Positions 781 to 28,859 of a stretch of DNA of 29,573 bases are shown in pieces. Made by a program: the position numbers and the translations under genes. Below the pieces are notes generated by a model. The model did no database searches. It was not told where the DNA came from and saw nothing but the letters and a program-made list of their open reading frames with translations. The stretch is from a virus (Duplodnaviria > Caudoviricetes). The first letter of the stretch is position 1; the number at the start of each line of letters is the position of its first letter. The stretch lies in the IMG/VR virus record IMGVR_UViG_3300032268_000205, positions 1 through 29,573 of that record, one strand, 5' to 3'.

Positions 781-3700
781 ATGGCAGAAATAGATGATCT
801 TTTTCTAGCTTTAGAAAGAGCGGATGCCGCTGGTAACAAGGAAGACGCTCGTGAATTAGCCAAGATGATCTCTATGGTTTCTGGCGGAGTTTCTGCTTCA
901 ACAGAACCAGCAGTTAAACAAAACACTAGCAACCTAGGCGACATTGCCACTGCGTTTAAACAAGGTGTTGTTGGAGCTGGTAAGTCCTTAACCGATGTAG
1001 CTGGGGCAGATAACGTTGCTTCTCAGTATCTTGGTGGTATTCAAGAAAGACTGGGAAAACAATATAGACCCCAACGCATTGAAGAAATGCAAAAACGGCA
1101 ACAGATCATAGATGAAGCCGTTAAATCAGGTAGCACCCTCGAAGAAATTAAAGCCTATTTAGGCGGTGTAACTGAAGCTCCAGTTCAATCTATTGCTCAG
1201 GCAGTAGGTTCTTTTGCACCTTACGTGGCGGCAGGTGGATTGGGTGCTGGAGCTAGAGCGCTTAGTTTGGCGGCTCCTAGTGCTAGAGCTGTAAACACTG
1301 GCATTGGTGCGCTACAAGGTACTGGCGCAATTAAAGGTTCTATCTACGAAAACGTTAAAAGAGAGCTTGAGGCTCAGGGCGCAAGCCCAGAAGTGGCGGC
1401 TGAAAGAGCTTTACAAGCCCAATCATATTCAATGGAAAACGCTCCTCAGCTTGGTTTAGGGGCGGTTTTAGGGGCTGCGGCTGGTAGATACGGTGCAGAG
1501 AGTTTGGTAACGCCTGGCGTTGCAACCCGTTTAAACGCTAAAATGCTGCCAAGAGCAGCAATGGCTGCCGCATCCGAAGCTCCATTTGAGGGTCTACAGG
1601 CTGGTCAAGAACAATACGCAACGAATTTAGCTTTAGCTAGAGAGGGTATTGACCGAGATCCTATGCAGGGAGTTATTGGATCTGCCGCCAGAGATGCCGC
1701 CATAGGCGCTATTACAGCCGCCCCTATCGGAGCTATTAGCCGTGGTCAAGCAGCGCCTCCTAAGCCCGTTTTAGAGCCTACAAAGGCACAAGAAAAGGAA
1801 GAATTAGCCAAGCAATCAGACCCTAGCATCTACAACGATGAAGTGAAGCAAAGTGCCCCTCAAATTGCGGCAATGCTACTGCCAGAAATGAAGCGTTTTG
1901 GCTTGGAAAATGTGGGTCTAAAGGTCATGGATTCTATCGAAAACGGTAGAGCCGATGGTATGTGGGCTAATAACCTGATCCACGTAGCCCTAGACAAGCC
2001 TAATCCGATGGGGTCTATGCGCCATGAGTCTATCCATGCGCTACGGGAACTAGGCGGTTTTAAAGACAATGAATGGTCGGCTTTAACTAATAAAGCTAAG
2101 GGCGAGTGGCTAGACACTTTTATTAAAAAAACTGGCAAATACGAAGATTACAAGCAGATCTACCAGAAAGATAACAAGACATTGGCTGGCTTTGACAGCT
2201 ATATCCAAGAAGAGGCTATTGCCGAAGCATTTAGATACTTTGACAAGAATGGCGCTCCAGAGGGCATGATTGGTGCTATCTACGAGAAGCTCAAGCTGAT
2301 GTTTGAAGCTCTCCGTAATGGATTTACTGGTGCTGGATTCCAAAGCGCAGACAGCATCTTTAGAAGCATTGAGTCAGGCACAAGAGCACAAGTGGCTCCA
2401 GCGGGCGAAGTGCTAAACCCCGCCAGATTCTCCAAGCCTGATACCCGCAGATTGGATATGAACTTCAAGGATGTTACTAAGCGTGTACCAGAATTGACTG
2501 AGGCGGCTAAAAAAGTAGAGGCTGGCGAAATGACTGCCGCTCAATACGATAAGCTAGTAAATAGATACAAACCAGTCACTCCGTATGATTTTGTTCCCCA
2601 GCCAGCCACAACAGAAGAAGCAGTCAATGCTTTAGATAAAAACAAAAGAGAGAATTTTGGCAAAGGCAAAGAAATTCCTGCTGGCGAACAAACAGATCTT
2701 CGTTTAGATATTCCCGCCTATAGAGACCACGGAGTATGGGTAAACTCTATACACCGCAAACAGCAACCTACGGTATACGATTCCGTATCTTCTGTCAAAA
2801 ATGCACAGATGATATTGCCAGAGGATAAAAGTTTAAAAGTTGCTACTAATGAAGCAAACAAATCTCCGTTTGGAGTAATTCGTGGAGAGTGGAATCCGCT
2901 TAATGAAAAACAAGCCATTGCACAAGCAAAGAAAGCTTTAAAAGACCCAGCGTGGACGCAAGTAGGCATGGATCCAGAGCGTCATAGTTATTTCTATGAC
3001 CGCAAAACAACACAGCCAATTTTGTCTGCCGATGAGGTTATCCAAATTGGTCCGCTTGTGCTGGCTAAAAACGCTAAGTTTGGCTCAAAGAAAGACTTTA
3101 AGTATTCAATTTCTAAGGTATCCAACTTGCAAGCCGCCGATGAGCTGGCTCGTTCCGCTAACTTTAAGACCAATAGAGATCTAAAAGTAGAGTTGCAAAA
3201 ACGTGCTTTAGACACCGCCAAAAAGAATGGTTTGGATCTGTCATCTATGGATGACAAGACGGTTGAATACTTAAATAAAATTGGCTTAGAGGACGCTGAG
3301 TTTTCTTTACAGAAACAGCCTAACGCAGTTGGCTGGTACGACAAGACCGTAGAAAAAGCCCTAAACATTATTGGCTTAATGCATCCAGAAATCAACACAG
3401 ATCCTGATGCTAAATTTGCCTTTACTTGGGCTTTAGCCGTTACATCTAACGGCATGAAGGTAGATAAAAACTTTGAGCTGGCTGAACAAGCGTATAGACA
3501 GTTTAAACAAACTGGCAAGATGCCTACCAACATACAGGCTGGCGAAGCACAAGAAGCTATTAACCAAGGTTTAAACACTTACAACGAAATGGTAGAGAAA
3601 TACGGAATTGATGATGTACGTCAATTCATGGCTACTGAGTTTACCGTTAACCAGTTAAGAAGAATTACTAACTTGCCGTTGGCAGAAGAACTTGCAGATA

Positions 3701-6700
3701 CCAAAGTATTGGGCGCAGCCATTCTCGGTCCTAAAATTGGTAACGGATTCTTTAGTAACTTAAACGGCATCTTTGACAAGCTAACGATGGATCGTTGGTT
3801 GATGCGTACATGGGGTCGCTGGACAGGATCTTTAATTACTGAGCGTCCAGACATGGTTGCTAAGTACCTTAAAGAAACTAGAGCCGCCTTATCTCAGCTT
3901 AGAACTGATAAAGATTTACGTGAAAACTTAAGTACTGTACTTAAAGAGCCAATCACATCAGAAGCTATTGATGCCATCCTTAAAGATAACGCATCTATTG
4001 CGGCTTTCTCTGAGCGTTTAGCCAAGATATTTGGTAAAAAAGATCTGCGAGAGTATCTAAGCCAGACACCAAGTGGCAATGCTTTACGTCTTTCAGCAAA
4101 CACCCTAAACGGCTACCTTGATGGGCAGAAAGAAGCTCCACAAGGTGGCGGTGAGCGCAACAACATTAGGTTGATTTTTAACAACATCCTAAAAGATTTG
4201 CAGAAAAAAGAATATCCAAACCTTACAATGGCAGACTTACAAGCCGCTCTTTGGTATTCTGAAAGACGTTTGTATGATGCGGCAAAAGAAAGCAAAATAT
4301 CAGAGAACTATACAGATGATGAAGCTCCTGATTATGCAAACGCAGCAGCTAAGTTAGCAAAACAGAATGGTGTACCAGAAGAATTAATTCAAAAAATAGC
4401 AAAGCAAACGGAGGAAGAATATGCTGACAGAACAGGAACAGTACAACGAGGCGGTGAAGAACAACCCGTTGAAACTAGCACCAAAGGAAGAGTTTCAGGC
4501 TTTGCTGGCAAAGAACTCAAGCACTTCCTTGCCAAAGGAATCTTACAATCCTATCGAGAACTCAATGCGGAGACACCCCAAACTTACCGCAGAGGAAGCG
4601 GAAAAGATGGCAAAGGCTTTCGGGTTCTAGGCGAAAGAGCAATTGCAGAGTATTCCCCTGTAATTAAGTTTAAAAATGCCTTAAAGAGTATTGACGTAAA
4701 TGCGCCTAAGTTCTATGAATTTAGTGCGGATTCTGCTCCAGTATTTGAAAAGGCAATTGCTGCCTCTAAAGAAAACAACCCATACGGTGCATCGGTCTAC
4801 GTATATCCAGTAGAAGATTACGCTAATATGCGTATGTTTATGACCGATGATGGCAAAGCTGGCTTTGCGCTAAAAGATAATGACATCGTCTCGGTGTTTT
4901 CACAGCCTCCTCACATAGGTGGTGTAAACGGCATCATGCAGCTGGCAATCCAAGAAGGCGGTAGAAAGCTAGATTGCTTTGATACTGTATTGCCTGACTT
5001 CTATTTCAATAACGGCTTCCAAATTGCGTCTCGTTTAAAGTGGAGCGAAGATCAGAAACCACCAGATTGGAACAAAGAAACATTTAGCAAGTTTAATGAT
5101 GGTGAGCCTGACGTTGTGTTTATGGCTTATGAGCCTACAAACAACAGAAGACCAACCAACGAAACTGGTGTGCTTTATCAAGACTACGATCAAGCTGTTG
5201 AGGCACAGGCTCAAGCGGTTCAGAAGTCACCTAAATATTCTATTTCTGCTCCAGACACCAAAGAGTTTAAACAATGGTTTGGCGACAGCAAGATCACCAA
5301 TGCTGATGGTAGCCCTAAAGTTTACTACCACGGTACTGCACAGGACATTACAGAGTTCAGACCAAAACAAGCTAATGCAATCTTCTTAACAGACAATCCT
5401 AGGTTTGCCGAAGACTTTTCTAACTTAAGTAAGTCTTATATGGAAGCAGTTGCGTTTAATTCTGCTACTCCAGAAGGTCAAATTCAACAATTACAAGAAG
5501 TCAGAAAACTATTGGAGGAAGAAGGCAGAGATACCGACTTAATAGCAAAAGATATTAGAAAACTTAAAAAAGGTGAAAAACTTTCAAGGGGCTTCTACCT
5601 AGATAGCGGCTATTCCGACTTGTTAGATTATGTTAATCGTGATGTATCTGGAGCAAAAAACATTCTTCCAGTATTTGTAAAAGCAAACAATCCTTTTGAT
5701 TATGCAAATCCAGCACACATTGATGCCATAACTAAAAAAGTAAATGAAATGAGGAAAGAAGATTGGCGGGCGCATTCAGTGCTTTCTGACCAAGTTCCTA
5801 ACTGGAGAGGTGATATTAAAGTTGGAAGCTGGCGAGCAATAGAAAATCCTCAATTTCAAAAAGCAATTAAAGCTCTTGGATTTGATGGGTTTTACGTAAG
5901 CGAAGGCGGCAATAAAAACCTTGCGGTATATGACTCAAATCAGATTAAATCCTTTACCAACCAAGCGCCCACAGAATCCAAAGACATTCGCTTCTCTCTT
6001 GCTTTAAACAAGCTAGAGCCTGATACATTCCTGACATCTGATAAGAACCCTAATGCTTTAGGTAACTTAGGGTTTATGCCAGTAAACTCCCCACTTCCTA
6101 AGCGTCCTATCCGCCTTCAAATCGGCACTAGAGGTGATGAAAGGGGCAAAGCCTACGGCGCTAAACATATCCTTGAGCGTGCTTTGACAGACGTGGCTCA
6201 CAGACCAGTAGCGGTTACCAAAGAAGCCCTAGAGGACACCATTCTGCACATTGAGAGCCTTTCCAAGCGCTTTAACCGTGTCTATGCAGACGGCAAACAG
6301 TTCATCCTGTACGACTCACAGACTGACGATGCAATGGTTGTAACCCCAATGAATGGTTTCTATGGTGTCACTACGATGTACAGTAATCCAAACGTACAAC
6401 GTAGATATGGAAACCCTAAGTGGAGCGGCAGAAACATTCAGCCGCCAGTAGAAGAGACAGGGTTAAAGGCTAAAGGCATATCTGTACGTGCTACAGAAGA
6501 GGGCGACATTGTTCAGTCTGAAGTGCCTAAAGCGTTTAAACAGGCAGCTAAAGTTATTAGCCCAGATGAGATCGAAAGACAGGCTGAAAACTTGCCACGC
6601 AAAACTGGCACGTTAGGTGTTAAGAAGAAGCTATCTTTAGTTAACGCTCCTCCACAAGGCACGTTTACAACACTACTGCCAAATGAGACTGCTGGCAAGC

Positions 6701-9309
6701 GTTTAACCGACACCATCACTAACGTTATGAAGTTCTTTAAAGATCCAGAAGAACGGATAAAGGCTCGCATAGCGTTTATTGACCCCAATTCGGGACTAGC
6801 AAGAAGTCTAAGAGATAGCCCAATCTATGATAAGAATGGTGTTCTACGTGCCGATTTGCTGGCTAGAGGCAAAGCTCAGACTATTAACATTATCCGCAAT
6901 GGTTTGCAGACAGGTATCCCCATCATTAATTCTGATGGTACTGTCATCATCCAAAGAGATGACGTAAACAACCTGGCTAACAGCCAGGCAATAGCAGACC
7001 GTTTAAACAATAACCAGTACGTTACCGACTCTGGTTTGAGCGGCAGGGGCTATGTGGCTGAGGTTGCTCGTGCCCTCCGTGGTAAAGAAATCATGGCAGA
7101 AGATGCCGCATTTAACAAAACACAGAAAAATGTTAAGAACCACGTAAACAGAGAAAAACAAATTAAGCCTGAGCAGATTGCGTGGGCAGAACAACAACTT
7201 CAAAACGTCCCTGAGCTAGAGCAAATCTTTGATATCTGGAAAAACGTCAATACTGGCTTGTTAAATCTATGGGAAGAAGTGGGTCTATTAGACAAGAAAA
7301 AAGCTGATGAGTATCGCTCCAAGAAGTACTATGTGTCTTTAGCGGCTTCTAACGCAGACCTAGAAGAGATGATGGAAAACCAACTAGGCTATACCGCCGC
7401 TGGTTTAAAGTCCACTCCCAAGATTCATAAGCTCAAAGGTTCTGCTGAATTAGAGCGCAACATTTGGGAAAACATCGATAAGCAGTACGCATCTATGTTG
7501 GCTGGCGCTTATCAAAATCAAGTGCGCAAGCTTGCGGTAGAGCAATTAATTCTGGCTGAGGCGGCTAGTATTCCATCGAGAATGAAAGGCGGCAAGTTGG
7601 TTGGCGCTCCTTTAACTGAAGGTATCAACCTACGCTACAAAGACCCAACAAATAAGTTGGCAGATAGCGATGGTGTGGTTCATGTCATAGTGGATAACCC
7701 TGTAGACCTAGCCGCCTTTGAGACACATCATTATGAGTTAAGCCCAATACTTAAGTTCTTTGGCGGGGCTACTAACATCCTTCGTGCAGGTGCTTTGATT
7801 AACCCAATGTTCTGGATTCGTCAACTTATTCGTGACCCAATCCATGCGGCTTTGGTGGCTAATAGTGGCATTACAACCCCATTCCATTCAGCTAAAGAGT
7901 TTATCAATGTGCTTGCAAAGAACTCGCCAGAGGCTCGTATATTGGCTGAACGTGGGGTTATTGGGCAGTACGATAGCACCCTAGACCTACAGTCTTACCT
8001 TAACCAAACTGGTAAAGAACAATTGCCAAAAGGCAATTTAAGCAAGATGTTCCACAAGTTAATGCAGATACATGAAGCGTCTGACGCATCTACCCGTGTG
8101 GCTATCTTTAAAAAAGAAAAACAAGCCGCCTTAGACAGAAACATGACCGAAGAGCAAGCCATAAACTTCGCTGTTATGAAAGCCCGTGAGTCTATTAACT
8201 TCATGGTTCATGGCAACTCAGAGACTTTAAACGCTCTGCGCCAGATGATTCCGTTCCTTTCTGCATCCATCACTTCTTTGGATACCGTATACCGTGCGGC
8301 TACAGGCTACAACTTACCGCCAGCAGAGAAGGCTGCTGCACAGAAGCTGTTTAAACAGCGTGCAGCTTTAATGTTTGGCAGCAGTATCGCCTACGCTATG
8401 TTGATGCAAGATGACGAGGAATATCAAAAGTTACCCAACTACATCAAAGACAATAACTGGCTGATCAAAAACCCAACAGGCGAAGGCTTCCTTAAAGTAG
8501 CCGTTCCGTATGAGGTTGGATTCATGTTTAAGACCTTGCCAGAGGTGGCTATACGAGGTTTGGCTGGAAACGCAACAGGCAAAGAGATACTGAAGTCGTA
8601 CAAAGACGGTTTCTTACACAACATACCTACTGGTGGAGTTCCTGTACCGCAGGGTGTTAAACCTGCCTTGGAAGTCATTACTAACTACTCATTCTTTACT
8701 GGCAATCCAATTGAGAGTATTGGCGAAGGCAGACTGCCAGTTGAGATGCGTGGCAGAAACGCTAGTGAAACCGCTAAGTTCCTCAGTCAATCTGGTTTGG
8801 GCGCAATCGGTCTGTCCCCCGCCAAGATCGATGCTTTGGTGCAAGGTTACTTTGCAGAGGCTGGTACATTTACATTCTCCTTGGCTGATCATCTTGTTAC
8901 TACAGTACAGGGCAAAGAGCCTACCTCTAAGAATTTGGCTAAACAACCATTCTTCAAAGCATTCTTAACTGATCCAAACTCAGACAAAGCCGTTGCTGAT
9001 TTCTATCAAATATCACAAGTTGCCAACCAAGTAGCGCAAGAATTTAGCGATATGACAAAGTCTGGTCTGGGCGCACAAGCAGTAGAACTAATGCAAGATG
9101 AAGACAAGCGTAAGCTCATGGCATCCGCTCCCGCCCTGCGTAGGGTGGCTACATCCATGACTGCTATCCGCAAGGCAATTGAAGCCACTAACAACAATCA
9201 AAATATCCCGCCCGATGAGCGTAGAGAAATGGTCAATAAGCTAACCGCTCAATACAACCGAGTAGCACAACAGGGTGTTAAATTGGCAGATACCTTGGGT
9301 ATTCGATAA
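781..9309 (+). CDS. Large polyvalent (virion-delivered) protein, 2842 aa
   Basis: Gly/Ala-rich N-terminus; zincin HESIH..EEAIAE; HhH-glycosylase-like GWY..GPKI..F..NL.G..TMDRW..QAALW; GNAT-like GFAL..DIVSVF..LDCFD..LPDFY..GF; ART-like FKQWFGDSK..YHGT..IFLT..GFDG; PBECR-like IRLQIG..YGAKHI; LPD38-like C-terminus (IPFL.ASI..VPYEVG..NYSFFTGNPIE). Confidence 0.85.
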   Translation: MAEIDDLFLALERADAAGNKEDARELAKMISMVSGGVSASTEPAVKQNTSNLGDIATAFKQGVVGAGKSLTDVAGADNVASQYLGGIQERLGKQYRPQRIEEMQKRQQIIDEAVKSGSTLEEIKAYLGGVTEAPVQSIAQAVGSFAPYVAAGGLGAGARALSLAAPSARAVNTGIGALQGTGAIKGSIYENVKRELEAQGASPEVAAERALQAQSYSMENAPQLGLGAVLGAAAGRYGAESLVTPGVATRLNAKMLPRAAMAAASEAPFEGLQAGQEQYATNLALAREGIDRDPMQGVIGSAARDAAIGAITAAPIGAISRGQAAPPKPVLEPTKAQEKEELAKQSDPSIYNDEVKQSAPQIAAMLLPEMKRFGLENVGLKVMDSIENGRADGMWANNLIHVALDKPNPMGSMRHESIHALRELGGFKDNEWSALTNKAKGEWLDTFIKKTGKYEDYKQIYQKDNKTLAGFDSYIQEEAIAEAFRYFDKNGAPEGMIGAIYEKLKLMFEALRNGFTGAGFQSADSIFRSIESGTRAQVAPAGEVLNPARFSKPDTRRLDMNFKDVTKRVPELTEAAKKVEAGEMTAAQYDKLVNRYKPVTPYDFVPQPATTEEAVNALDKNKRENFGKGKEIPAGEQTDLRLDIPAYRDHGVWVNSIHRKQQPTVYDSVSSVKNAQMILPEDKSLKVATNEANKSPFGVIRGEWNPLNEKQAIAQAKKALKDPAWTQVGMDPERHSYFYDRKTTQPILSADEVIQIGPLVLAKNAKFGSKKDFKYSISKVSNLQAADELARSANFKTNRDLKVELQKRALDTAKKNGLDLSSMDDKTVEYLNKIGLEDAEFSLQKQPNAVGWYDKTVEKALNIIGLMHPEINTDPDAKFAFTWALAVTSNGMKVDKNFELAEQAYRQFKQTGKMPTNIQAGEAQEAINQGLNTYNEMVEKYGIDDVRQFMATEFTVNQLRRITNLPLAEELADTKVLGAAILGPKIGNGFFSNLNGIFDKLTMDRWLMRTWGRWTGSLITERPDMVAKYLKETRAALSQLRTDKDLRENLSTVLKEPITSEAIDAILKDNASIAAFSERLAKIFGKKDLREYLSQTPSGNALRLSANTLNGYLDGQKEAPQGGGERNNIRLIFNNILKDLQKKEYPNLTMADLQAALWYSERRLYDAAKESKISENYTDDEAPDYANAAAKLAKQNGVPEELIQKIAKQTEEEYADRTGTVQRGGEEQPVETSTKGRVSGFAGKELKHFLAKGILQSYRELNAETPQTYRRGSGKDGKGFRVLGERAIAEYSPVIKFKNALKSIDVNAPKFYEFSADSAPVFEKAIAASKENNPYGASVYVYPVEDYANMRMFMTDDGKAGFALKDNDIVSVFSQPPHIGGVNGIMQLAIQEGGRKLDCFDTVLPDFYFNNGFQIASRLKWSEDQKPPDWNKETFSKFNDGEPDVVFMAYEPTNNRRPTNETGVLYQDYDQAVEAQAQAVQKSPKYSISAPDTKEFKQWFGDSKITNADGSPKVYYHGTAQDITEFRPKQANAIFLTDNPRFAEDFSNLSKSYMEAVAFNSATPEGQIQQLQEVRKLLEEEGRDTDLIAKDIRKLKKGEKLSRGFYLDSGYSDLLDYVNRDVSGAKNILPVFVKANNPFDYANPAHIDAITKKVNEMRKEDWRAHSVLSDQVPNWRGDIKVGSWRAIENPQFQKAIKALGFDGFYVSEGGNKNLAVYDSNQIKSFTNQAPTESKDIRFSLALNKLEPDTFLTSDKNPNALGNLGFMPVNSPLPKRPIRLQIGTRGDERGKAYGAKHILERALTDVAHRPVAVTKEALEDTILHIESLSKRFNRVYADGKQFILYDSQTDDAMVVTPMNGFYGVTTMYSNPNVQRRYGNPKWSGRNIQPPVEETGLKAKGISVRATEEGDIVQSEVPKAFKQAAKVISPDEIERQAENLPRKTGTLGVKKKLSLVNAPPQGTFTTLLPNETAGKRLTDTITNVMKFFKDPEERIKARIAFIDPNSGLARSLRDSPIYDKNGVLRADLLARGKAQTINIIRNGLQTGIPIINSDGTVIIQRDDVNNLANSQAIADRLNNNQYVTDSGLSGRGYVAEVARALRGKEIMAEDAAFNKTQKNVKNHVNREKQIKPEQIAWAEQQLQNVPELEQIFDIWKNVNTGLLNLWEEVGLLDKKKADEYRSKKYYVSLAASNADLEEMMENQLGYTAAGLKSTPKIHKLKGSAELERNIWENIDKQYASMLAGAYQNQVRKLAVEQLILAEAASIPSRMKGGKLVGAPLTEGINLRYKDPTNKLADSDGVVHVIVDNPVDLAAFETHHYELSPILKFFGGATNILRAGALINPMFWIRQLIRDPIHAALVANSGITTPFHSAKEFINVLAKNSPEARILAERGVIGQYDSTLDLQSYLNQTGKEQLPKGNLSKMFHKLMQIHEASDASTRVAIFKKEKQAALDRNMTEEQAINFAVMKARESINFMVHGNSETLNALRQMIPFLSASITSLDTVYRAATGYNLPPAEKAAAQKLFKQRAALMFGSSIAYAMLMQDDEEYQKLPNYIKDNNWLIKNPTGEGFLKVAVPYEVGFMFKTLPEVAIRGLAGNATGKEILKSYKDGFLHNIPTGGVPVPQGVKPALEVITNYSFFTGNPIESIGEGRLPVEMRGRNASETAKFLSQSGLGAIGLSPAKIDALVQGYFAEAGTFTFSLADHLVTTVQGKEPTSKNLAKQPFFKAFLTDPNSDKAVADFYQISQVANQVAQEFSDMTKSGLGAQAVELMQDEDKRKLMASAPALRRVATSMTAIRKAIEATNNNQNIPPDERREMVNKLTAQYNRVAQQGVKLADTLGIR

Positions 9310-9379
9310 ATAAATCGCATTTGTCACAAAAGTCATATATGATTTATTGTTGTAATTCAACAATTTACGGAGGCTTTTG

Positions 9380-10375
9380 ATGTCAAATTATTTCGTTTCG
9401 GATGAAGATTTTATCTCCGCTTGGAGAGCTTTAGGATCGCCAAATCTTGTCGCCCAAAGATTCAAAATGGGCATACGTTCAGCCCATTCCCGAAGACGAA
9501 CGTTGGAGTTTAAATACAACATAGAACTCCCAACCACAGACCCACAAAGACCTGGCAATCCCAACAGTCCAGCAAAAATCATCAAAAAGATTGAAGAGAC
9601 TGACGGTCATGTCAGGCGGGGAATAGATATTGAAAAAGGTCGGGTTATTGTATTTAGCGATGCCCACTTCCAGCCTGATGAGGTAACAACTGCGTACAAA
9701 GCCCTGCTGCTGATGATCAAGACGTTTAAACATGAGATTAAAGCCATCGTAGCCAACGGAGATATTTTTGACGGCAGTCAGGTCAGCAAACATCAAAGAA
9801 TTAACTGGTCTCAAACACCCACGGTCAAAGAAGAGCTTGATGCCTGTAAGCTGATGATGGACGGGATTGAAGCCGCCGCCAGTAAAAATACTGAACTAAT
9901 TTGGTGTTTAGGTAATCATGATGCCCGTTTTGAAACATTTCTTGCTAATAACGGTAGCGCCACTTACGAGGGGGTATTAGGGTTTTCCCTTAAAGACCAC
10001 TTCCCTATGTGGAAATCGTGCTGGTCATTTTGGGTAAACGAGGACACCGTAATCAAACACCGCTGGAAGGGTGGTTTTGGGGCAACGAGGGGGAACAGTT
10101 TAAACAGCGGCTGTAATATGGTTACAGGGCATACGCACAATCTCTCCACCTTTCCGATCACTGACTATAATGGAACGAGATGGGGGGTGCAGACTGGATG
10201 CCTTGCAAACCCTAAGTCCGACTGTTTCATACATTACACGGAAGATGCGCCAACTGACTGGCGGTCAGGCTTTGTAATGTTATCGTGGGAAAACGGTAGG
10301 ATGTTGATGCCCGAAATGATTATGGTTTCGGGAGAGGACGAATTTGAATTTCGTGGCTGCATTAATAAGGTTTAA
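9380..10375 (+). CDS. Calcineurin-like metallophosphoesterase
   Basis: Motifs SDAH, NGDIFD, GNHD and GHTH. RBS GGAGG at 9369-9373 supports the ATG at 9380. Confidence 0.85.
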   Translation: MSNYFVSDEDFISAWRALGSPNLVAQRFKMGIRSAHSRRRTLEFKYNIELPTTDPQRPGNPNSPAKIIKKIEETDGHVRRGIDIEKGRVIVFSDAHFQPDEVTTAYKALLLMIKTFKHEIKAIVANGDIFDGSQVSKHQRINWSQTPTVKEELDACKLMMDGIEAAASKNTELIWCLGNHDARFETFLANNGSATYEGVLGFSLKDHFPMWKSCWSFWVNEDTVIKHRWKGGFGATRGNSLNSGCNMVTGHTHNLSTFPITDYNGTRWGVQTGCLANPKSDCFIHYTEDAPTDWRSGFVMLSWENGRMLMPEMIMVSGEDEFEFRGCINKV

Positions 10376-10377
10376 AC

Positions 10378-21654: not shown

Positions 21655-21829
21655 GAACCTGAATGTAGCGTTTAAACAATAGGCATTCAGCATAGTACCC
21701 ATAAGGTGAAACAATTTCAAAATAAATTATTGAAATTTTATTTTGTAATCAAAGCCTTGCAAGCGTTTTTGTGTTTGAAAAGTTCTGCACCGATTAAGAG
21801 CGTTTAAACGGCTTGCACAATTTTAAGAC

Positions 21830-21867
21830 AAAAAAAAAGCCCCCCGATGACCGAAGTCAAAGGGGGG
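21830..21867 (-). terminator. Intrinsic terminator of the leftward early operon
   Basis: Minus strand CCCCCC-TT-TGAC-TTCG-GTCA-TC-GGGGGG-C-T9. Confidence 0.8.
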
Positions 21868-21875
21868 ATCTAGCA

Positions 21876-22097
21876 TCATTTCAAGGTTAGATTGGCTATG
21901 TGTTCCCATACGGTTTCAACATAGCCTTGGATGTCATCGTCAGGGGATTGATCCCTGATGTCTATCAATGTATCAAAAGCTTTATTAAAGTTACGCAAAG
22001 CCTCCTTATCACTTATTGCATTTGTCTCAACTAAATGCTGAATTGACATTACATCTAAAACAACTCGGTTTAGTCTTACTTGATTTTGTGTGTGCAT
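21876..22097 (-). CDS. Hypothetical protein
   Basis: ORF track; RBS GAGGA. Confidence 0.7.
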   Translation of the reverse strand: MHTQNQVRLNRVVLDVMSIQHLVETNAISDKEALRNFNKAFDTLIDIRDQSPDDDIQGYVETVWEHIANLTLK

Positions 22098-22105
22098 AAG
22101 TCCTC

Positions 22106-22381
22106 TTAATAATTTTCAATTGAACGATCAGTCATGCTCGCCACCTCAACATCGAAGATAGAGCGCATGATGGATAAAACGGTTGCATCGTCACCTTTTG
22201 CAAGTGCTTGCATCAACTCACTTTGCAACGGATAAACCTTGTCGTGCAAGTCGCACTCCGCAGGGTTTACACCGAACTGACGAATCTCTTTAAGAACCAT
22301 TTCGTTCTCTTCCTCCCAACGGATTTCGCAGTCTTCCGTATCTTCCGCACAACTTTGTAACCAACGATCAGGATTAATCAT
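22106..22381 (-). CDS. Hypothetical acidic protein
   Basis: ORF track; RBS AGGAG. Confidence 0.7.
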   Translation of the reverse strand: MINPDRWLQSCAEDTEDCEIRWEEENEMVLKEIRQFGVNPAECDLHDKVYPLQSELMQALAKGDDATVLSIMRSIFDVEVASMTDRSIENY

Positions 22382-22535
22382 CGTTCAACTCCTTTGCTAA
22401 GTTAAGCAATTGACTGGGGGTGTAACCATCCAGTACCAACTGCACAAGATTGTCAACGGTAAAGTCAACGAAGTAGTCATACACCCTGACTGCATTGTCC
22501 TCACCTACCAAGTCTTTTAATTGTTCATAAGTCAT
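22374..22535 (-). CDS. 53-aa hypothetical protein (MTYEQLKDLV...)
   Basis: RBS GGAGGTG; ATGA overlap. Confidence 0.7.
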   Translation of the reverse strand: MTYEQLKDLVGEDNAVRVYDYFVDFTVDNLVQLVLDGYTPSQLLNLAKELNDD

Positions 22536-22696
22536 GACTTCACCTCCTCTGTAAGTTTATTAATTAACTGATCAACTTTTTTCCAAGCCTTGTCAGCCTC
22601 CTTATCTAACTTGCCACTCATATGCTCGTTGACGGTGAGTTCGGTGTAGTAAGCAATCTGTGACCGTAACTCAGACGCTATCCATGCTCTATCCAT
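22532..22696 (-). CDS. 54-aa hypothetical protein (MDRAWIASEL...)
   Basis: Start moved to the ATG at 22696, which follows AAGGAG. Confidence 0.7.
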   Translation of the reverse strand: MDRAWIASELRSQIAYYTELTVNEHMSGKLDKEADKAWKKVDQLINKLTEEVKS

Positions 22697-22817
22697 TCTT
22701 ACGCTCCTTAATTTCACGTTCAAGTATTTGTTGAAACAACTTCCAACGTGATGACTTTTTATAGCCCGCACGTTGAGCCTCACGATCTACAACTTTTACA
22801 ACTGGTGTTGGTCTCAT
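22689..22817 (-). CDS. 42-aa basic peptide (MRPTPVVKVV...)
   Basis: Fills the operon gap and overlaps the next gene. Confidence 0.55.
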   Translation of the reverse strand: MRPTPVVKVVDREAQRAGYKKSSRWKLFQQILEREIKERKNG

Positions 22818-22820
22818 TGT

Positions 22821-22910
22821 TTAAACAACCCCACGAATAAAGTTGGCAACGAATACAACCAACACAACATACAAAGCAACATCCCACAAGCGATCAATAA
22901 AGTGTTTCAT
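22821..22910 (-). CDS. 29-aa single-TM peptide (MKHFIDRLWD...)
   Basis: RBS AGGGG; its stop lies inside a GTTTAAAC. Confidence 0.5.
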   Translation of the reverse strand: MKHFIDRLWDVALYVVLVVFVANFIRGVV

Positions 22911-22918
22911 TTTTTCCC

Positions 22919-23137
22919 CTAATGAATGGTTTCATTGCTTGGATCGTTGGACTCATATACCTGAGCCAAAACCCTGTTGACGTACTGCGAAAGCGAATGC
23001 GGTGGAAGACCGCCCATGCAACCCGCATTAGCGAGTAGCAAGGCGAGTACCGACACTACAATGTCCACGTCCTTGCCGTTAATTTGATTGCCCATCAACT
23101 CCATCAGGCTTTCAAACTGAGAACTGTCATCTTCCAT
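22919..23137 (-). CDS. Hypothetical protein (MEDDSSQF...TIH)
   Basis: C-terminal part of track ORF 22919..23254; G-rich RBS before the ATG at 23137. Confidence 0.6.
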   Translation of the reverse strand: MEDDSSQFESLMELMGNQINGKDVDIVVSVLALLLANAGCMGGLPPHSLSQYVNRVLAQVYESNDPSNETIH

Positions 23138-23169
23138 ACTCCCCCCATCGGGGGGCATAGCCCCCCACA

Positions 23170-23976
23170 TTAGCGTAACTCCTTGAGCAGTTTGCCAAAG
23201 GATGCATCGGCTAGATTGTTGACGTTCTCTACGTTTTGAGCAATCTTGAAACATTGCTCAACCTCTGTCTTGCCGACACCGATTGCTATTATTTTAATGC
23301 CTAGCTTGTCGGCAATCCCTTGCAGGTGAACCATGTGCGACTTGGTGTATGAGTCGGCATCAGTCAGGAAGAACAGGATCTTGCGTTGCTCATCCCGCTT
23401 GCTCAACTCCTCCAAGGTTATGGATAGGGCAGAGTAGTCGGGAGTGGAATGCTTTGCCCACCCGCTGATTGATCCAAGCTTGGCAGATGCCTTGGTCAAT
23501 GACTCATTCCAAGTCTTGAATGGAATGAACTCGGTGTACTCTACCGATGCCACGATGGTATCGGTGGTAGCCCCAGTAGCACTCTGACTTGCATGACCAT
23601 ACCCGCCATGAAAGCCAACCACGTTGAATGATGCATTTGCTTTGTCAAGCATCTTGCTCAACTGGATTGCAACCGATTGGGCGGTTTGAATTCTGCGCCC
23701 ATTGCCCATCGATCCTGAGCAGTCAATCAAGATGGTGACCGCAGAGGCTTGCGCCTCAACGTGATGCCGTTTAGAGAAGATCGCAGTACTGCCTGTTGCG
23801 TAGCGTGTAAACGCTTTGCGATCTAACCGCCCTGTCTCCTCATGGGTATTCCAACCGACAAGGTCAAGGCTACGCAAGATGCGTTGGATGGTAGCCTTGG
23901 TAGCACCGAGACCGCTAGGCTCGGAGTTGAACTCGACAGAGTAAGACATCTGCGCTTGTGTTTTATTGATTAGCAT
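23170..23976 (-). CDS. vWA-domain protein (CobT-like C-terminal half)
   Basis: GRLD..; MIDAS ILIDCSGSM; TPD; FFLTDA; own RBS TAAGGAG. Confidence 0.85.
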   Translation of the reverse strand: MLINKTQAQMSYSVEFNSEPSGLGATKATIQRILRSLDLVGWNTHEETGRLDRKAFTRYATGSTAIFSKRHHVEAQASAVTILIDCSGSMGNGRRIQTAQSVAIQLSKMLDKANASFNVVGFHGGYGHASQSATGATTDTIVASVEYTEFIPFKTWNESLTKASAKLGSISGWAKHSTPDYSALSITLEELSKRDEQRKILFFLTDADSYTKSHMVHLQGIADKLGIKIIAIGVGKTEVEQCFKIAQNVENVNNLADASFGKLLKELR

Positions 23977-23984
23977 ACGACTCC

Positions 23985-25040
23985 TTATCGCCACTCGAAT
24001 GTGGCATACGTTGGTTTAGCTGAACTAGGACGGCTATCTAAGCGTGGGTTAAGTTCGGTGCGCTGATCCTTGAGTTCACCCTCGATGAACTCGGATGGCT
24101 CAACATTGCGCCCGCCTGCAAACTCCTTACCGCCACCGTTTTTCTTGCCCTCCTCAGACGATTTATCTCCATCGGTAGGCTCACCCTTATCGGCAGGCTG
24201 ATCGCCTCCCTCAGACCCCTTCTCGCCATCCTGATCGCCCTTGTCACCGTCAGTAGGCTTGTCGGTAGGATCACCATCACCGCCCTTGTCACCGTCCTCA
24301 GTCGGTGGCTTGTCACTAGGCTTATCGCCATGCTCGACAGGCTGATCACCGTCACGCTCTTGGTCACCACCCTCATCCTCGCCATCGGTAGGCTCAGGCT
24401 CAAAGTCCTTGAGACGTTTGAACAATTCGATTGCGATCTCTGCAATGCGGTAGGTGTTGGGTGCTACCTGCGCCTCGGCTAAAGCCCAACGTAGATCAGC
24501 AGACCAAGGGGCATCATCAACAATGCTTGGCGCATCGATGTGGTAACCGTTTAAACGTCTTCCCTCAACAGCGAGTAAAAACGGTACGTTCTTGAGATCG
24601 TCCGCATCAACGTAGCCATGCTTTTTAAGAATCGAATTGAGCAACTCCTCAAACAATGCCTTGGCATTCGGGGCATAGCCTGACTCGATGACCTTGCGCT
24701 CGATGCGAGGATCTTCAAGACCATTAATAAGATTGCCAACGAATTGACCATGCTCATTGCGAGCGGTGTCCCAAGGCTTGTTCTCGGTGAACCATGCATG
24801 ACCGAGTTCATGGATCGCATAGCCGATCAGGTTATTAAAGGTAGAGCGTTTCATCTCCGCACCCTCATCGATGGAGGGGAAGACGATCTTGGCATCCACC
24901 GTATTACCGACACGCTTGAAGATGATGCCTGCGGTAGATCCAGTCCACAGTACTTGCAACTGAGAGAACTCATTGCCTGTCGAACCGAACACACGCTCGA
25001 CAGTAGACTCGACACCACGTTTAGCATTGATTGCTAACAT
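23985..25040 (-). CDS. CobT-like N-terminal metallopeptidase with acidic low-complexity tail
   Basis: HELGH..NGLEDPRIE; D/G/K/P-rich stretch; RBS GGAGGCTT. Confidence 0.8.
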   Translation of the reverse strand: MLAINAKRGVESTVERVFGSTGNEFSQLQVLWTGSTAGIIFKRVGNTVDAKIVFPSIDEGAEMKRSTFNNLIGYAIHELGHAWFTENKPWDTARNEHGQFVGNLINGLEDPRIERKVIESGYAPNAKALFEELLNSILKKHGYVDADDLKNVPFLLAVEGRRLNGYHIDAPSIVDDAPWSADLRWALAEAQVAPNTYRIAEIAIELFKRLKDFEPEPTDGEDEGGDQERDGDQPVEHGDKPSDKPPTEDGDKGGDGDPTDKPTDGDKGDQDGEKGSEGGDQPADKGEPTDGDKSSEEGKKNGGGKEFAGGRNVEPSEFIEGELKDQRTELNPRLDSRPSSAKPTYATFEWR

Positions 25041-25049
25041 AAAGCCTCC

Positions 25050-26522
25050 TTACTTAGTTAAGAATGATTTGAGATTGTTGACATCGATGGTGGCAGAAAA
25101 TACACCACGCAACTCAGCCTCGCAATCAGCGGGGAACTTATTAACGATTGCATTCTCAAAGGCGATGCCGACTGGCACACCCTTGGTAATCGCACGTGCC
25201 CAAGCAAACAACTGACGTAGGCTTGGTGGTTGAGTCAGCACACCTGCTTTAGCTTTCTCACGTGCAACCGTAGCGAACTTGATCAGCACCTCCGAGGCAT
25301 CGACTGGTAAGCCAGTACGCTTAGACACAAGCGAGACCTCATCAGCAAAGGGCAGGTACTCAAAGCGCAACGTGTAACCAAAGCGATCAATGAATGCGGT
25401 GTTCTGATCACGCACACCTGCGAAGTTGCCTGACTGGTCACCGAATCCGTTACTGTTATCGGCACAGAAAAACGCAACGTGCGATGCGACTGCGATGCGT
25501 TCGCCTGTCTCAGCGATAACGATAGAGCGGTGTGGGCTACGCTCACAGAGCGAGTGCAGTACTGCAATTGACTGCGCTCTTGCAAAGCCAACCTCATCGA
25601 GTATTATCAGCGCACCTGTGTGTTGGATTGCTTGAGTGATGACACCCGCTTTCCACACCACGTTGCCATCCTTGATGGTGTTGCCACCGATGAACTCGGC
25701 ACGCTCCATCGCCTCATCGAAGTTGACTCGGAAGAGTCTACGTCCGAGGCGGGATGCAACCTGAGTCACGAACTCGGTCTTACCAGTACCACGCTCACCT
25801 GCAAGCCACACGTTGTCAGGCAGGGGATCATCGAGCGCAACCAAGGCTTGATGCAGGTGCTTAGGATCGAACACGTAGTCATCGACACGTGCGGGAGCGG
25901 ATGGATCGTTCCACACCTCGATGTCCATGTTGCTAAAGTCGATGGTCTCGCCACCGTACTCATAGCTGAGTGCGCCATCGAACACGTCCTTGACCTTGGC
26001 ACGCTTGACGTTCGGTACTGACTGCGCCACCTGAGCGATAACCTCCTTGGTGGCGGTCTTTTTGAATGAGGCAAAAAGCTTGGACACCTCAGCACGAATG
26101 GTGTCTTCAATGACCTTGGGATCAGGCTTTTCAACCGCATCGATCTTGACGTTTAAACGGTCTGCCAAGATCTTGAAGTCCTTGGCAATCTGTGTTGACT
26201 GTTGCAACGCAGAGTCAAGGGATCTGTCAGCAGTCGTGCGTAGTGCATCGACTTGTGCCAAGGCTTTGTCAACCTTGACTTGCGCATCGGTCACCGACTT
26301 GCGGATGTCATCAGGCACACCCTGTAAAACAGATGATGGCTTGGTGTTGCGCACCTCATCGATGGTGACGTAGCCACCGTTGATCAGGTCTGCCACGAAC
26401 TGATTGTCATCAACAGGGTTACCAGTAAAGGCGCAGTTGGGCGCAAGCTTTGCGCCATGTTGGTCAAGCACCACCTGTACTACGGTGCGTGGGAGCAGGG
26501 AAATGATTTTTGGAATATTCAA
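25050..26522 (-). CDS. CobS/MoxR-like AAA+ ATPase with N-terminal coiled coil
   Basis: Walker A GERGTGKT, Walker B IILDE, ADN..G, AFIDRF, SLRQL; TTG start after GGAGGCTT. Confidence 0.9.
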   Translation of the reverse strand: MNIPKIISLLPRTVVQVVLDQHGAKLAPNCAFTGNPVDDNQFVADLINGGYVTIDEVRNTKPSSVLQGVPDDIRKSVTDAQVKVDKALAQVDALRTTADRSLDSALQQSTQIAKDFKILADRLNVKIDAVEKPDPKVIEDTIRAEVSKLFASFKKTATKEVIAQVAQSVPNVKRAKVKDVFDGALSYEYGGETIDFSNMDIEVWNDPSAPARVDDYVFDPKHLHQALVALDDPLPDNVWLAGERGTGKTEFVTQVASRLGRRLFRVNFDEAMERAEFIGGNTIKDGNVVWKAGVITQAIQHTGALIILDEVGFARAQSIAVLHSLCERSPHRSIVIAETGERIAVASHVAFFCADNSNGFGDQSGNFAGVRDQNTAFIDRFGYTLRFEYLPFADEVSLVSKRTGLPVDASEVLIKFATVAREKAKAGVLTQPPSLRQLFAWARAITKGVPVGIAFENAIVNKFPADCEAELRGVFSATIDVNNLKSFLTK

Positions 26523-26542
26523 GGTAAGCCTCCGAGAAAAAA

Positions 26543-27145
26543 TTAATTAGCTAAAACGAATTGCGTACCGCATTGGCACGTAGGTAAACCCTTGTCAGCC
26601 CATCCCTTAGCCACTCGGATGGTGTACTGACTCTTGACTGTGCCGTCAGGCTTGTGCTCAACGCACGTACCGCATACCGCCTTGAGCATACGTGTTGACT
26701 GCACCTTGTAGCTACTGGCTACGTTTAGCTTGGCATGAGGGTAGATCCCAAGCGATTCAAGGATCGGGGCAAAATTCTCACGAAACTGCTTACCCACCTT
26801 GGTTTGAGTCAGACTGCCCTCAAGCCACACCTTGCGGACACAATGTTTAAACTCTGTGCCATGCGATGAGCCTGTGACTGCGTGGCTTAGTTCGTGCATC
26901 AGCACACCGAGCACCTCGACAGAGTCATCGAGTACAGGCGAGATGAAGATCTGATGAGTCGCATCTTCCGATGCATCAGGTGAGAAGTGCTCACCGACAT
27001 TGCGGTACAAACTGCGTGCCCGCTTGGATGGGAAACCGCAAGAGACCCTGACGTGATCAGGGATGGGGAAACCGTTAGCGTGGAAAATGCCACGCACCGA
27101 TGTGACTGCATTGTTGAGCCATTGCTCACGTAAAGCTTGGGTCAT
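26543..27145 (-). CDS. SprT-like zincin with C-terminal Zn ribbon
   Basis: VLMHELSHA..HGTEF; CGTC..CQCG. Confidence 0.8.
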   Translation of the reverse strand: MTQALREQWLNNAVTSVRGIFHANGFPIPDHVRVSCGFPSKRARSLYRNVGEHFSPDASEDATHQIFISPVLDDSVEVLGVLMHELSHAVTGSSHGTEFKHCVRKVWLEGSLTQTKVGKQFRENFAPILESLGIYPHAKLNVASSYKVQSTRMLKAVCGTCVEHKPDGTVKSQYTIRVAKGWADKGLPTCQCGTQFVLAN

Positions 27146-27246
27146 AGAACCTCCTTGTGTTTTTGTTTGCGGGAATACTTGCGGGCGGTGTGGCTACCTG
27201 CACCACAACGCTTTGCGTGCTTTGCTACGAAGTTTCTGATAGGCAT
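27142..27246 (-). CDS. 34-aa basic peptide MPIRNFVAKHAKRCGAGSHTARKYSRKQKHKEVL
   Basis: RBS GGAGGG; ATGA overlap; N.VAK..AG.H..KY.RK.KH pattern seen in small phage proteins. Confidence 0.7.
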   Translation of the reverse strand: MPIRNFVAKHAKRCGAGSHTARKYSRKQKHKEVL

Positions 27247-27254
27247 AAGCCCTC

Positions 27255-27545
27255 CTAATATCCATGTTTATCTGAGTCGAATGAATCGTCACCGTCATAC
27301 CATTGGGTCTGATTCAGTCCCTGTTTGAACACCTGATTTGCCTCTGATTTATGGTGATCAGAACCATATTTCAGGATGAATTTCAAATACTTTTTGCGGA
27401 GCGGGAGCGCAACCTTGTACTCACCCTCTGCGTGTAGATCCAACTCATGTAGGCAAACATAAGCTAGATCGTCAATTGTTTTATGGGAAAAAAAGTCATA
27501 ACTGGTGTTGATTGGTAATGCTTTTAATGCTTTATCGAAGTCCAT
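27255..27545 (-). CDS. Hypothetical early protein (MDFDKALK...)
   Basis: Start moved to the ATG at 27545, which follows AGGAGA. Confidence 0.7.
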   Translation of the reverse strand: MDFDKALKALPINTSYDFFSHKTIDDLAYVCLHELDLHAEGEYKVALPLRKKYLKFILKYGSDHHKSEANQVFKQGLNQTQWYDGDDSFDSDKHGY

Positions 27546-27563
27546 AGGTCTCCTAAATAAATC

Positions 27564-27605
27564 GATGCAAGGCGCATCCTCATGCCCCCAAGGGGAGGCA
27601 TTGAG
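27564..27605 (-). promoter_or_regulatory. Two-hairpin RNA element, copy A
   Basis: CTCAATGCC..GGCATGAG-GATGC-N5-GCATC upstream of an RBS; second copy at 28094-28136. Confidence 0.6.
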
Positions 27606-27615
27606 ATGGGTCTTA

Positions 27616-27714
27616 CTATGAGCTAAGCCACTCATCAAAGCTTTTGGGTGGTGACTCGCTAGTGCAAGCCAAATAGATTTGATACCGTTGCCACAATTTG
27701 CCTTGGAATTGCAT
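27616..27714 (-). CDS. 32-aa peptide MQFQGKLWQRYQIYLACTSESPPKSFDEWLSS
   Basis: RBS AGGAGG; RYQIY..C..PK.FDEWL pattern seen in phage early regions. Confidence 0.7.
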   Translation of the reverse strand: MQFQGKLWQRYQIYLACTSESPPKSFDEWLSS

Positions 27715-27722
27715 AAAACCTC

Positions 27723-27926
27723 CTATTTTTTGTCAACTAATTGTTGGGTCAGTACTACCAACCCCTCGATAAGCCTGTTGGCTCGGACACTTTCGGGAGT
27801 GGTCATCCCATTTTTACGGACATGAAACCAACCATGTGGCTTAACGTCAATGATGCAAGGCTTGCGTTTAACCGCCCGCCAAGCATTTTCATAAGCCTCG
27901 GCTAAAGCCTCATTGTTTAACTGCAT
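27723..27926 (-). CDS. Hypothetical early protein
   Basis: ORF track; RBS GGAGGG. Confidence 0.7.
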   Translation of the reverse strand: MQLNNEALAEAYENAWRAVKRKPCIIDVKPHGWFHVRKNGMTTPESVRANRLIEGLVVLTQQLVDKK

Positions 27927-27937
27927 AAGCCCTCCGA

Positions 27938-28078
27938 TTAAAGAAAGAAGTTAGCGGGAATAGCACCAGTCTCGGTTTCGATTGGGTAAATGCTTTCGTA
28001 TTGCAGGAATACTGGGGTTTTGGTTTTAAAGTCGAGACCGATAAAAGAAAGGATTTGAAAAAATTTGATTGATTTCAT
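27938..28078 (-). CDS. 46-aa first gene of the early operon (MKSIKFFQ...)
   Basis: RBS GGAGGCTT before the ATG at 28078. Confidence 0.65.
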   Translation of the reverse strand: MKSIKFFQILSFIGLDFKTKTPVFLQYESIYPIETETGAIPANFFL

Positions 28079-28089
28079 AAAGCCTCCAT

Positions 28090-28378
28090 AAGAGATGCGG
28101 GATGCATCCTCTTGCCTGCTCATAACAGGCAATGAGAAACACCCTACAAGCCTGATAAGCGCAATCGCTACGGATCACGTCAGGCATCTGTCTATTCGGT
28201 CAGCGGAAAGCCACCGAAATTTAATTGCTTGGTTACGTCCCAAGCGACACTAGATTCTGTCTAGCTACCTCGTTTTTACGTACCCGAGGTCAGGCAAGCC
28301 TTTTCGTGTTCAAACCCATAGTGGATGGGAGAGGATCTGAACTAATGCCATATGGTGGAGGCATAAAACTAAACAACC
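28090..28378 (-). ncRNA. Hairpin-rich ~290-nt leader of the early operon
   Basis: Seven or more consecutive inverted repeats and no credible ORF, downstream of a TATACT -10 box. Confidence 0.45.
28094..28136 (-). promoter_or_regulatory. Two-hairpin RNA element, copy B
   Basis: CTCATTGCC..GGCAAGAG-GATGC-N5-GCATC upstream of an RBS. Confidence 0.6.
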
Positions 28379-28383
28379 CTTGA

Positions 28384-28414
28384 AGTATACACACAATCAA
28401 TTGCAACGTGTAAA
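28384..28414 (-). promoter_or_regulatory. Probable early promoter
   Basis: TATACT at 28384-28389 (minus strand); TTTACA 19 nt upstream (non-ideal spacing). Confidence 0.45.
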
Positions 28415-28859
28415 CACTTTGTATAAATGATTGAGTAATCTGTAGGGTTATTGCCACAAGTCAGCCCTATATATAGGGAAGAATTCAGCCTGTTTTAGGT
28501 CTTATATAAGACCAACCCTGCAAGCCAGTAGATATAAGGGTGCGGTTCACCACGGCATTTTCACGTGTGTACTAATGCACTTGCCTCATGTAGACACAAA
28601 ACGTCTCTAAAGCCCTGTAATGCGGTTTAAACGGTATGTATGGATATACAGTACTGGTGTCGCATTTTTGCAACCGAGCGGGAAAATGTCGAAGACGATC
28701 AGGCAAATGTATGGTAGTTGGCAGAGGCTCATGTAGTGAGCTAGTAAACTTGCATGGGTGACATAGAAGTGAACAAAGTAGAAACATGATTGACAACGTA
28801 GAGCGACAAGCTCATTATGTGAGCTAGTGACGTATTGTTTAAACATAGAGGGGAATCAG

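Follow-up and report, generated by a model that had tools for sequence, protein, structure and literature searches.

An iterated palindrome of freshwater phages and its probable reading by a SprT-like zinc-ribbon protein

The virus record IMGVR_UViG_3300032268_000205 (Duplodnaviria; Caudoviricetes), analysed over its positions 1 to 29,573 (hereafter the window), carries 32 exact copies of the palindrome GTTTAAAC. We propose that these are selected DNA sites for the phage's own SprT-like protein, which would bind them via its C-terminal zinc ribbon. The comparative sequence evidence presented below makes it very probable that this protein is the reader of the word. As to the consequence, we favour, at a probability of about 0.5, the reading in which the sites bound by the SprT-like protein would form a genome-wide, stoperator-like system where the protein acts as an autoregulated repressor or roadblock. 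The window covers roughly half of the genome of this lake phage, ~60 kb in all, and comprises a polyvalent protein gene, middle genes, a primase-helicase gene, the early operon and terS.

The array (954..28844, no strand) has a density of 1.08 sites per kb, and the exact count of 32 lies far outside the 0.67-1.83 copies expected from Markov models of orders 0-3, in agreement with the original prediction of at least 32 copies for about one expected. The sites start at 954, 1529, 3501, 3569, 5265, 6534, 7001, 8349, 9724, 10098, 10370, 10954, 12008, 12553, 13206, 14424, 15080, 15893, 16639, 17069, 18868, 19292, 19349, 20864, 21670, 21802, 22819, 24549, 26151, 26845, 28625 and 28837. Genes contain 22 of them (11 encoding x-F-K-x and 11 encoding x-L-N), and the site at 10370 overlaps a stop codon. 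The other nine fall between genes, among them the pairs 19292/19349, 21670/21802 and 28625/28837, whose placement had been correctly noted. Sites 10370 and 12553 adjoin start codons, as had been noticed; of the two copies said to form a V-stop, the one at 10370 does overlap a stop codon and the one at 22819 is intergenic in our annotation. The claim that selection acts at the DNA level is borne out by 1000 within-gene synonymous codon shuffles, which generated 2.3 in-gene copies on average and never more than 8, versus the 22 observed, as well as by the conservation of the sites in relatives. The word is used in 22 of the 28 amino-acid contexts of the window that permit it. The gaps between sites are evener than random (coefficient of variation, CV, 0.64, p 0.003; longest gap 1972, p 0.0014). 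The flanks are biased towards Y before and R after the word (82% of 1564 distinct contexts), and the complete signal reads Y-GTTTA-M-A-Y-R, without polarity. The word corresponds to the PmeI site.

Nine further sites (728..28415, no strand; 728, 4922, 9508, 11059, 17399, 21168, 22265, 23805 and 28408) differ from the word by one or two letters (GTTTACAC, GTTTAAAT, GTTTACAT), and such variants are likely part of the same signal, as weaker sites of the same protein. When the near-matches were pooled over 30 palindrome-class relatives, GTTTACAC and GTTTAAAT reached 4.65x and 2.75x expectation, and the others 0.55-1.6x. The strand counts over 77 genomes (186/189 for GTTTAAAT, 174/237 for GTTTACAC and 74/63 for GTTTACAT) indicate no strand polarity.

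The array is shared by the many members of a freshwater phage clade with genomes of ~60 kb. Relatives about 75% identical in nucleotide sequence have kept the majority of the aligned sites unchanged (11/14 in G016, 8/10 in G018, 6/7 in G021 and, at the lowest, 8/14 in L015), in general 75-85% of them against 10-15% of ordinary 8-mers; the 8-mers neighbouring the sites are retained at 7-16%. The array is not a library artefact, since relatives assembled independently carry sites at these positions, and contigs from four of four other runs cover the region. Per 1000 residues, four motif-rich genomes have 2.2-3.9 word-permitting peptides and five genomes without the palindrome 0.8-1.3; amino acids have therefore been changed for the sake of the word. 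Among 24 whole records, 18 have 16-44 copies and six have 0-3; four of these six belong to a lineage that uses GTTTACAC/GTTTACAT instead, and other lineages favour GTTTAAAT. Avoidance of TTAA does not explain the lineages that use GTTTACAY only. Genes contain 1509 of the 2060 clade sites, and the density is lowest in the head and tail genes and climbs toward the early end.

It is highly improbable that the array is a by-product of methylation-directed repair or of another mutational bias, as proposed for HIP1, and we already disfavour this explanation. It could draw on the N6/N4 DNA methyltransferase of the window (14337..15266, minus strand), one of the causes originally suggested, and on the mild depletion of four near-matches (0.55-0.76x). 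This methyltransferase is present in only 6 of 19 genomes (14 of the 19 being GTTTAAAC-rich and three variant-rich) and is absent from motif-rich ones, and we reject it as a general cause. Furthermore, permitted variants are enriched, not removed, and neither the excess of word-permitting peptides nor the even spacing and promoter placement fit a mutational origin. A word shared with the host, another idea to be checked, is also rejected as far as candidate hosts go. The window phage has no close cultured relative (best 31-41% identity). Two metagenome-assembled genomes (MAGs), betaproteobacterial or Burkholderiaceae by title, contain relatives, which is weak evidence on the host; their chromosomes are not enriched for the word, and their word clusters sit on phage-like contigs (checked for L085). 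In the 121 genomes of one MAG's family the word exceeded a control word in eight and never rose above ~0.04 per kb; the true host was not identified.

The idea of sites for a DNA-binding protein of the phage is supported, but none of the candidates first named for it held. The AT-hook gene occurs in 10/19 genomes and is missing from motif-rich ones, the ribbon-helix-helix (RHH) gene is retained in the motif-less G025, and the cluster of the polyvalent protein occurs in 6/19 genomes. Nicking, virion-delivered modification and DNA translocation found no support, and they fit poorly with the pairing of the same word and gene on plasmids. The likely reader, which had not been listed, is a SprT-like zincin (HELSH) with a C-terminal zinc ribbon (26543..27145, minus strand; weak Pfam SprT-like match, PHROG 6361). 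Its ribbon (26546..26713, minus strand), composed of a Q-x-T-R-M strand, two Cys pairs and a long beta hairpin, is the presumed DNA-binding part, DNA binding being deduced from co-variation.

The following lines of evidence tie the word to the ribbon gene. First, we compared 77 non-redundant complete early regions. The SprT-like, AAA+ and CobT/vWA genes are present in 74 of them, all enriched 6-100-fold for the word, and the three early regions without these genes show background word counts. L246, whose early region is incomplete, was left out as a negative, and the 'SprT+' label of L023 refers to a 46-residue remnant. Two of the three negatives, L023 (sister to G005, support 1.0) and G017, are nested losses on the primase tree. 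L023 has three sites versus 15 in its sister over matching spans, and site retention in L023 taken alone is borderline (2/7, p 0.009; 2/5 for cleanly aligned sites, p 0.06). In both losses an ArdC-family gene (identified by eye from lists of open reading frames, the two clustering together) takes the same genomic slot.

Second, we examined 15 unrelated replicons picked across the protein matches (11 of 164 phage records and 4 of 74 plasmids), in all of which tblastn found no match to AAA or vWA. Twelve have an intact Q-x-x-R ribbon strand; in 11 of these the word or one of its variants is over-represented, and the twelfth has two sites, one of them a short way upstream of the gene. No site occurs in the three whose strand is altered. 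The intact-strand cases include R5C (17 copies vs 0.52 expected), a Magnetospira plasmid (18 vs 0.45), JackieB (41 vs 1.62), Cassia (23 vs 0.91, as GTTTACAC) and a P. viciae plasmid (10 vs 0.38, as GTGTACAC). Similarly, among five further actinophages, the three EB-type ones with an altered strand have 0, 0 and 2 sites, and the two AZ phages with an intact strand have 17 and 18.

Third, the word changes along with the ribbon strand. In a comparison of 32 further loci, six of them broken or of other type, Q-x-x-R-H ribbons accompany GTGTACAC at five of five loci and GTTTAAAC at none, and Q-x-x-R-M/L ribbons accompany GTTTAAAC at 16 of 21 loci and GTGTACAC at none of the 21. Whether M or L follows the ribbon arginine also shifts the shares of the variants (p 0.001 and 0.008, not corrected for kinship). 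Fourth, a protein-blind scan for close word pairs, which covered 4 of the 64 parts of a viral collection and 77 loci of at least 4 kb, recovered the ribbon in 15/20 strongly enriched, 1/10 intermediate and 1/47 non-enriched loci (p 7e-10, strong vs non-enriched), some of the 20 sharing a contig or belonging to the window clade. Among the five strongly enriched loci where the ribbon was missed, both of the complete records have the gene, and the other three are fragments, 13-31% complete.

Two sets of loci were noticed beside these comparisons. SprT-like genes with an altered ribbon strand occur in YuA-like and EB-type phages (L458, L459, L460, L666, L667 and L670); such ribbons may read another word, and a few rare AT-rich 8-mers top the lists. 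A different phage group (L578 5347-15167, L582, L546, L598, L615 and L581) carries ~4 sites per kb, in an array that starts at a ribbon-only or protease-dead gene and is almost absent from the terminase-portal part; its amidoligase, glutamine amidotransferase and WhiB-like genes, recognised by eye, make it possibly actinobacterial.

The predicted structure of the SprT-like protein would suit a reader of palindromes. The Q, R, C, R and C residues of its ribbon are invariant across 68 aligned sequences. The Pfam SprT-like match is below cut-off for the window protein, and 41 of 71 members have it at E<=0.1. In the predicted model (pLDDT, the predicted local distance difference test score, 91) the zincin domain is N-terminal and the ribbon, with its long hairpin, C-terminal. 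The zincin domain is nearest to SPRTN (6mdx; Z 8.0, root-mean-square deviation 2.9 over 95 residues), in a tie with abylysin and Wss1; Atlas matches stay under 0.9. The predicted homodimer scores 0.52 (best control 0.00), with runs agreeing in at least 92% of contacts and a pLDDT of 86; the mark used was reached by 20/30 solved homodimers and 1/23 monomers, a calibration that is only roughly applicable here. A homodimer is thus supported as a prediction. In this model the ribbons meet on the two-fold axis, R177 and P188 touching their mates, so that the two ribbons would lie next to each other, each facing one half-site. The array does not depend on the protease domain: HExxH is missing in 9/74 clade members at the same array density (1.52 vs 1.38 per kb), and ribbon-only and protease-dead genes accompany several of the densest arrays.

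Another reader, be it the AAA+/vWA pair or a conserved host protein, with the SprT-like gene merely travelling along, is quite improbable. The AAA and vWA genes are likewise present in 74/74 members, the motif class is linked to a similar degree with several genes (vWA, SprT, exonuclease and RHH, at a partial rho of 0.28-0.36), and class-C phages swap modules among themselves. These observations are to be set against the array of unrelated replicons that have no AAA/vWA genes, for which reason we reject the pair as the reader, against hosts that span Actinobacteria and three proteobacterial classes, and against the change of the word together with the ribbon strand. The SAP-like N-terminus that was seen by eye in the AAA+/vWA pair had no such Pfam match in the 74 members and no Atlas match.

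Turning from the reader to its likely action, the divergent early/late control region of the window (28200..28860, no strand) contains three sites (28408, a variant, 28625 and 28837). Across the clade the array is densest in this region, with 169 sites over 74 genomes in the 600 bp ahead of terS, versus 4-23 per 200-bp bin further upstream. Promoters were called by consensus match only. A sigma-70-like promoter (28790..28818, plus strand; 10/12 consensus match; four found vs 2.0 in shuffles) precedes terS, and site 28837 falls between this promoter-like sequence and the ribosome-binding site of terS, which starts at 28860. Ten of the 12 unrelated intact-ribbon replicons have a site at most 130 bp upstream of the SprT-like gene. 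In Cassia a site directly follows the -10 box at four repeated promoters, and likewise in VroomVroom. Lysogens of AZ phages are described as immune, with no repressor identified in the available text (10.1101/2020.11.21.392811). An AZ phage with a truncated SprT gene forms clear plaques and its near-twin turbid ones, according to the accessible part of another report (10.1101/2025.05.26.655371).

We propose that the SprT-like protein would be made first on entry and would then occupy its own and other early promoters, thereby shutting them down, while the protein on intragenic sites would damp early and middle transcription. The outcome would be early shut-off, a quiescent or lysogenic state, and superinfection immunity. 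Loading or removal of the SprT-like protein is a putative role of the AAA+/vWA pair in this clade. The AAA+ ATPase is a possible remodeller of the bound protein, and it is unneeded for the array elsewhere.

Several observations weigh against the proposal, some bearing on the reader and others on repression. L023 keeps its 46-residue ribbon remnant, with no visible ribosome-binding site, yet has lost the array; the anti-restriction gene ArdC was gained in both losses and therefore points to defence; and within the clade AAA/vWA co-occur perfectly with the array. The R-H ribbons probably represent one clade, and no ribbon residue explains the switch to the GTTTACAY-only or GTTTAAAT-only lineages; in addition, distance correlations and a column scan revealed no single determinant of the within-clade word variants. 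No convincing structural match to the ribbon was found among solved folds (best Z 3.2; a GCM-DNA complex, Z 2.7, is among ties). The Ralstonia plasmid has only two sites, and those of pUT1 and of the P. viciae plasmid are clumped. Clade sites are not promoter-specific, with 3.8 per kb in convergent spacers, 2.6 in tandem ones, 2.6 in divergent ones and 1.0 in genes. Promoter overlap in the control region amounts to 12 vs 5.7 expected, and sites within 120 bp of the SprT-like gene are weakly enriched (18/74 members vs 11.4 expected). Late genes still use 48% of their word opportunities. Three further positions separate Liebe from its twin. As to lysogeny, an integrase-family gene was noticed among the middle genes of the complete relative G006 (L091 2696-3550); integrase was found in one of two complete genomes, partly scanned, is not a common cluster and is sporadic.

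The same reader could possibly do another job, a less probable view than repression: the sites would be self-marking, and an evenly spaced protein coat, bearing the protease and the AAA+/vWA unfoldase, would block or destroy DNA-moving defence enzymes (type I restriction, McrBC- or SMC-like). The 'protective' binding protein of the original prediction accordingly remains a live rival to a 'repressive' one. Even spacing in the window and in nine of the 11 unrelated replicons, with CV values of 0.43-0.65 and a combined p of 5e-7, fits a coat, as do sites that fall wherever the sequence is free, the early-region position, the occurrence on phages and plasmids alike, and the host-family genomes with at most ~0.04 sites per kb. 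So does ArdC, a SPRTN-like DNA-binding zincin found in both losses and, in the available text, acting in anti-restriction without its protease (PMC7213743). Against a coat stand the constant placement of sites behind the -10 box of AZ promoters and the clear plaques of the SprT-truncated AZ phage; moreover, the late half of the genome is thinly covered, the regularity across the clade is mild (9/62 at p<0.05 with the degenerate word) and the protease is often dead.

The even spacing, the gradient from the early end, the ATPase encoded next door and the position of the gene beside rep/parA on plasmids could also suggest a DNA organiser, i.e. a partition, compaction or entry (ratchet) factor anchored at dispersed sites. 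This is improbable, knowing that no ATPase partner occurs outside the clade, that the promoter geometry is left aside, and that an entry ratchet is unfit for plasmids or for mid-genome genes beside integrases.

Our preferred reading, an autoregulated repressor or roadblock, invites comparison with known systems. In the available text, the stoperators of Cluster A mycobacteriophages (L5) are asymmetric, transcription-oriented, mainly intergenic 13-mers bound by a helix-turn-helix (HTH) monomer, whose binding halts both initiation and elongation and confers immunity (PMC9283540). The present array resembles them in having at least 20 sites for one phage protein, in promoters and genome-wide, here denser toward the early genes. 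It differs from them in consisting of 8-mer palindromes or unoriented variants (8/6, 16/7 and 19/22), in lying for two thirds (22/32) in genes and not mainly in short intergenic spaces, in having as likely reader a predicted zinc-ribbon dimer fused to a zincin instead of an HTH plus Stoperator-domain monomer, and in occurring also on plasmids. By analogy, the array would work like the Cluster A system while failing its defining features. The cyanobacterial HIP1 is likewise described as an iterated 8-mer palindrome in and between genes, conserved and even (PMC5861425, PMC4390886). Unlike HIP1, the present word is carried by mobile elements and not by host chromosomes, shows no tie, of the kind that HIP1 has with a cognate orphan methyltransferase, to the methyltransferase of the window (a result without a family-by-family search for other methyltransferases), and has a candidate reader whose sequence tracks it. 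DNA uptake sequences, Chi and KOPS are host-chromosome signals, the latter two polar; like them, the present word is short and selected strongly enough to alter amino acids, but it is not host-chromosomal and, unlike Chi and KOPS, is non-polar.

The reader itself resembles the DNA-associated zincins (SPRTN/Wss1, IrrE, CapP and ArdC), in which a zincin is joined to a DNA-binding domain. We know of no reading of a double-stranded DNA word by SPRTN or IrrE. The likeness to ArdC extends to the dispensable protease and the shared genomic slot. Unlike ArdC, where an N-terminal domain binding single-stranded DNA precedes the zincin, the window protein has its zincin N-terminal and its ribbon C-terminal; the ArdC binding is reported, in the available text, to have no sequence preference (PMC7213743). 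For the SprT-like protease of Arthrobacter Cluster AZ (Lizalica gp46), the accessible part of the AZ report expects a SPRTN-like function and names no binding site; it refers to repeats close to the SprT gene, without showing them (10.1101/2025.05.26.655371), and these may be the sites described here. A jumbo-phage review, in its available text, treats SprT-like peptidases and MoxR-vWA-peptidase pairs as factors of host-protein cleavage and virion assembly, with no DNA word (PMC7824862). A plasmid paper lists, in the accessible part, a zinc metallopeptidase without assigned function (PMC7414963). Our search of the literature, mostly without subscription papers and bioRxiv supplements, returned no description of the word-protein link.

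In the window, the SprT-like gene is followed in its operon by genes for a MoxR/CbbQ-type AAA+ ATPase (25050..26522, minus strand; in 74/74 clade members), a CobT-like N-terminal HExxH peptidase with an acidic linker (23985..25040, minus strand; phrog_1576) and the vWA domain partner of the ATPase (23170..23994, minus strand; CobT_C, VWA). The peptidase and vWA parts are fused in about half of the relatives, one subclade having them as separate genes and the other as a fusion, and the module is exchanged among members, L337 and L344 sharing 87% vWA on distant primases. A second SprT-like gene (10378-10731, plus strand) encodes 117 amino acids above the Pfam cut-off, without a ribbon, and a site abuts its start codon. 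The polyvalent protein (781-9309, plus strand; 2842 amino acids, ART-PolyVal and LPD38 domains) is highly variable among relatives. Other words recur in the window: CCAGTA is over-represented (40 vs 11.8 expected, both strands), AATGCGGT is present ten times, and AAGCCTCC is repeated just ahead of genes (18691, 21998, 25042, 26526, 28080 and 9369, 19153, 19955). On the coding strand the latter reads GGAGGCTT, a uniform ribosome-binding word, which is over-represented in several relatives too. In other genomes, a second repeated word around GTTCGCA is about tenfold enriched in several relatives (L175, L188, L190, L202, L009, L067 and L218), L246 encodes a large terminase with a long intein-like insertion (3959-6484), and GTAC is strongly avoided in G006, unlike its relatives (62 vs 300 expected), which suggests a host restriction site.

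New here are the two nested losses in which ArdC takes over, the switch of the word along with the ribbon strand, the loci that have a ribbon only, the arrangement of sites at promoters of cultured phages, and a model of the dimer. They would offer a DNA target and a first recognition code for proteins so far labelled simply 'SprT-like protease', in no fewer than 164 phage and 74 plasmid records, and an iterated palindrome with a named candidate reader, which HIP1 still lacks. They also provide a candidate repressor for the temperate AZ and EH phages, both of which are cultured on harmless hosts. Tentatively, the system might be a widespread, undescribed form of phage and plasmid self-recognition, in which a ribbon with a short residue-to-base code would lay down a regular coat tethering a protease (here with an AAA+ unfoldase) against defence enzymes, and would also supply the immunity repressor of AZ/EH actinophages. 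Should the coat indeed be defensive, it would represent a novel, methylation-free form of self-marking by mobile DNA.

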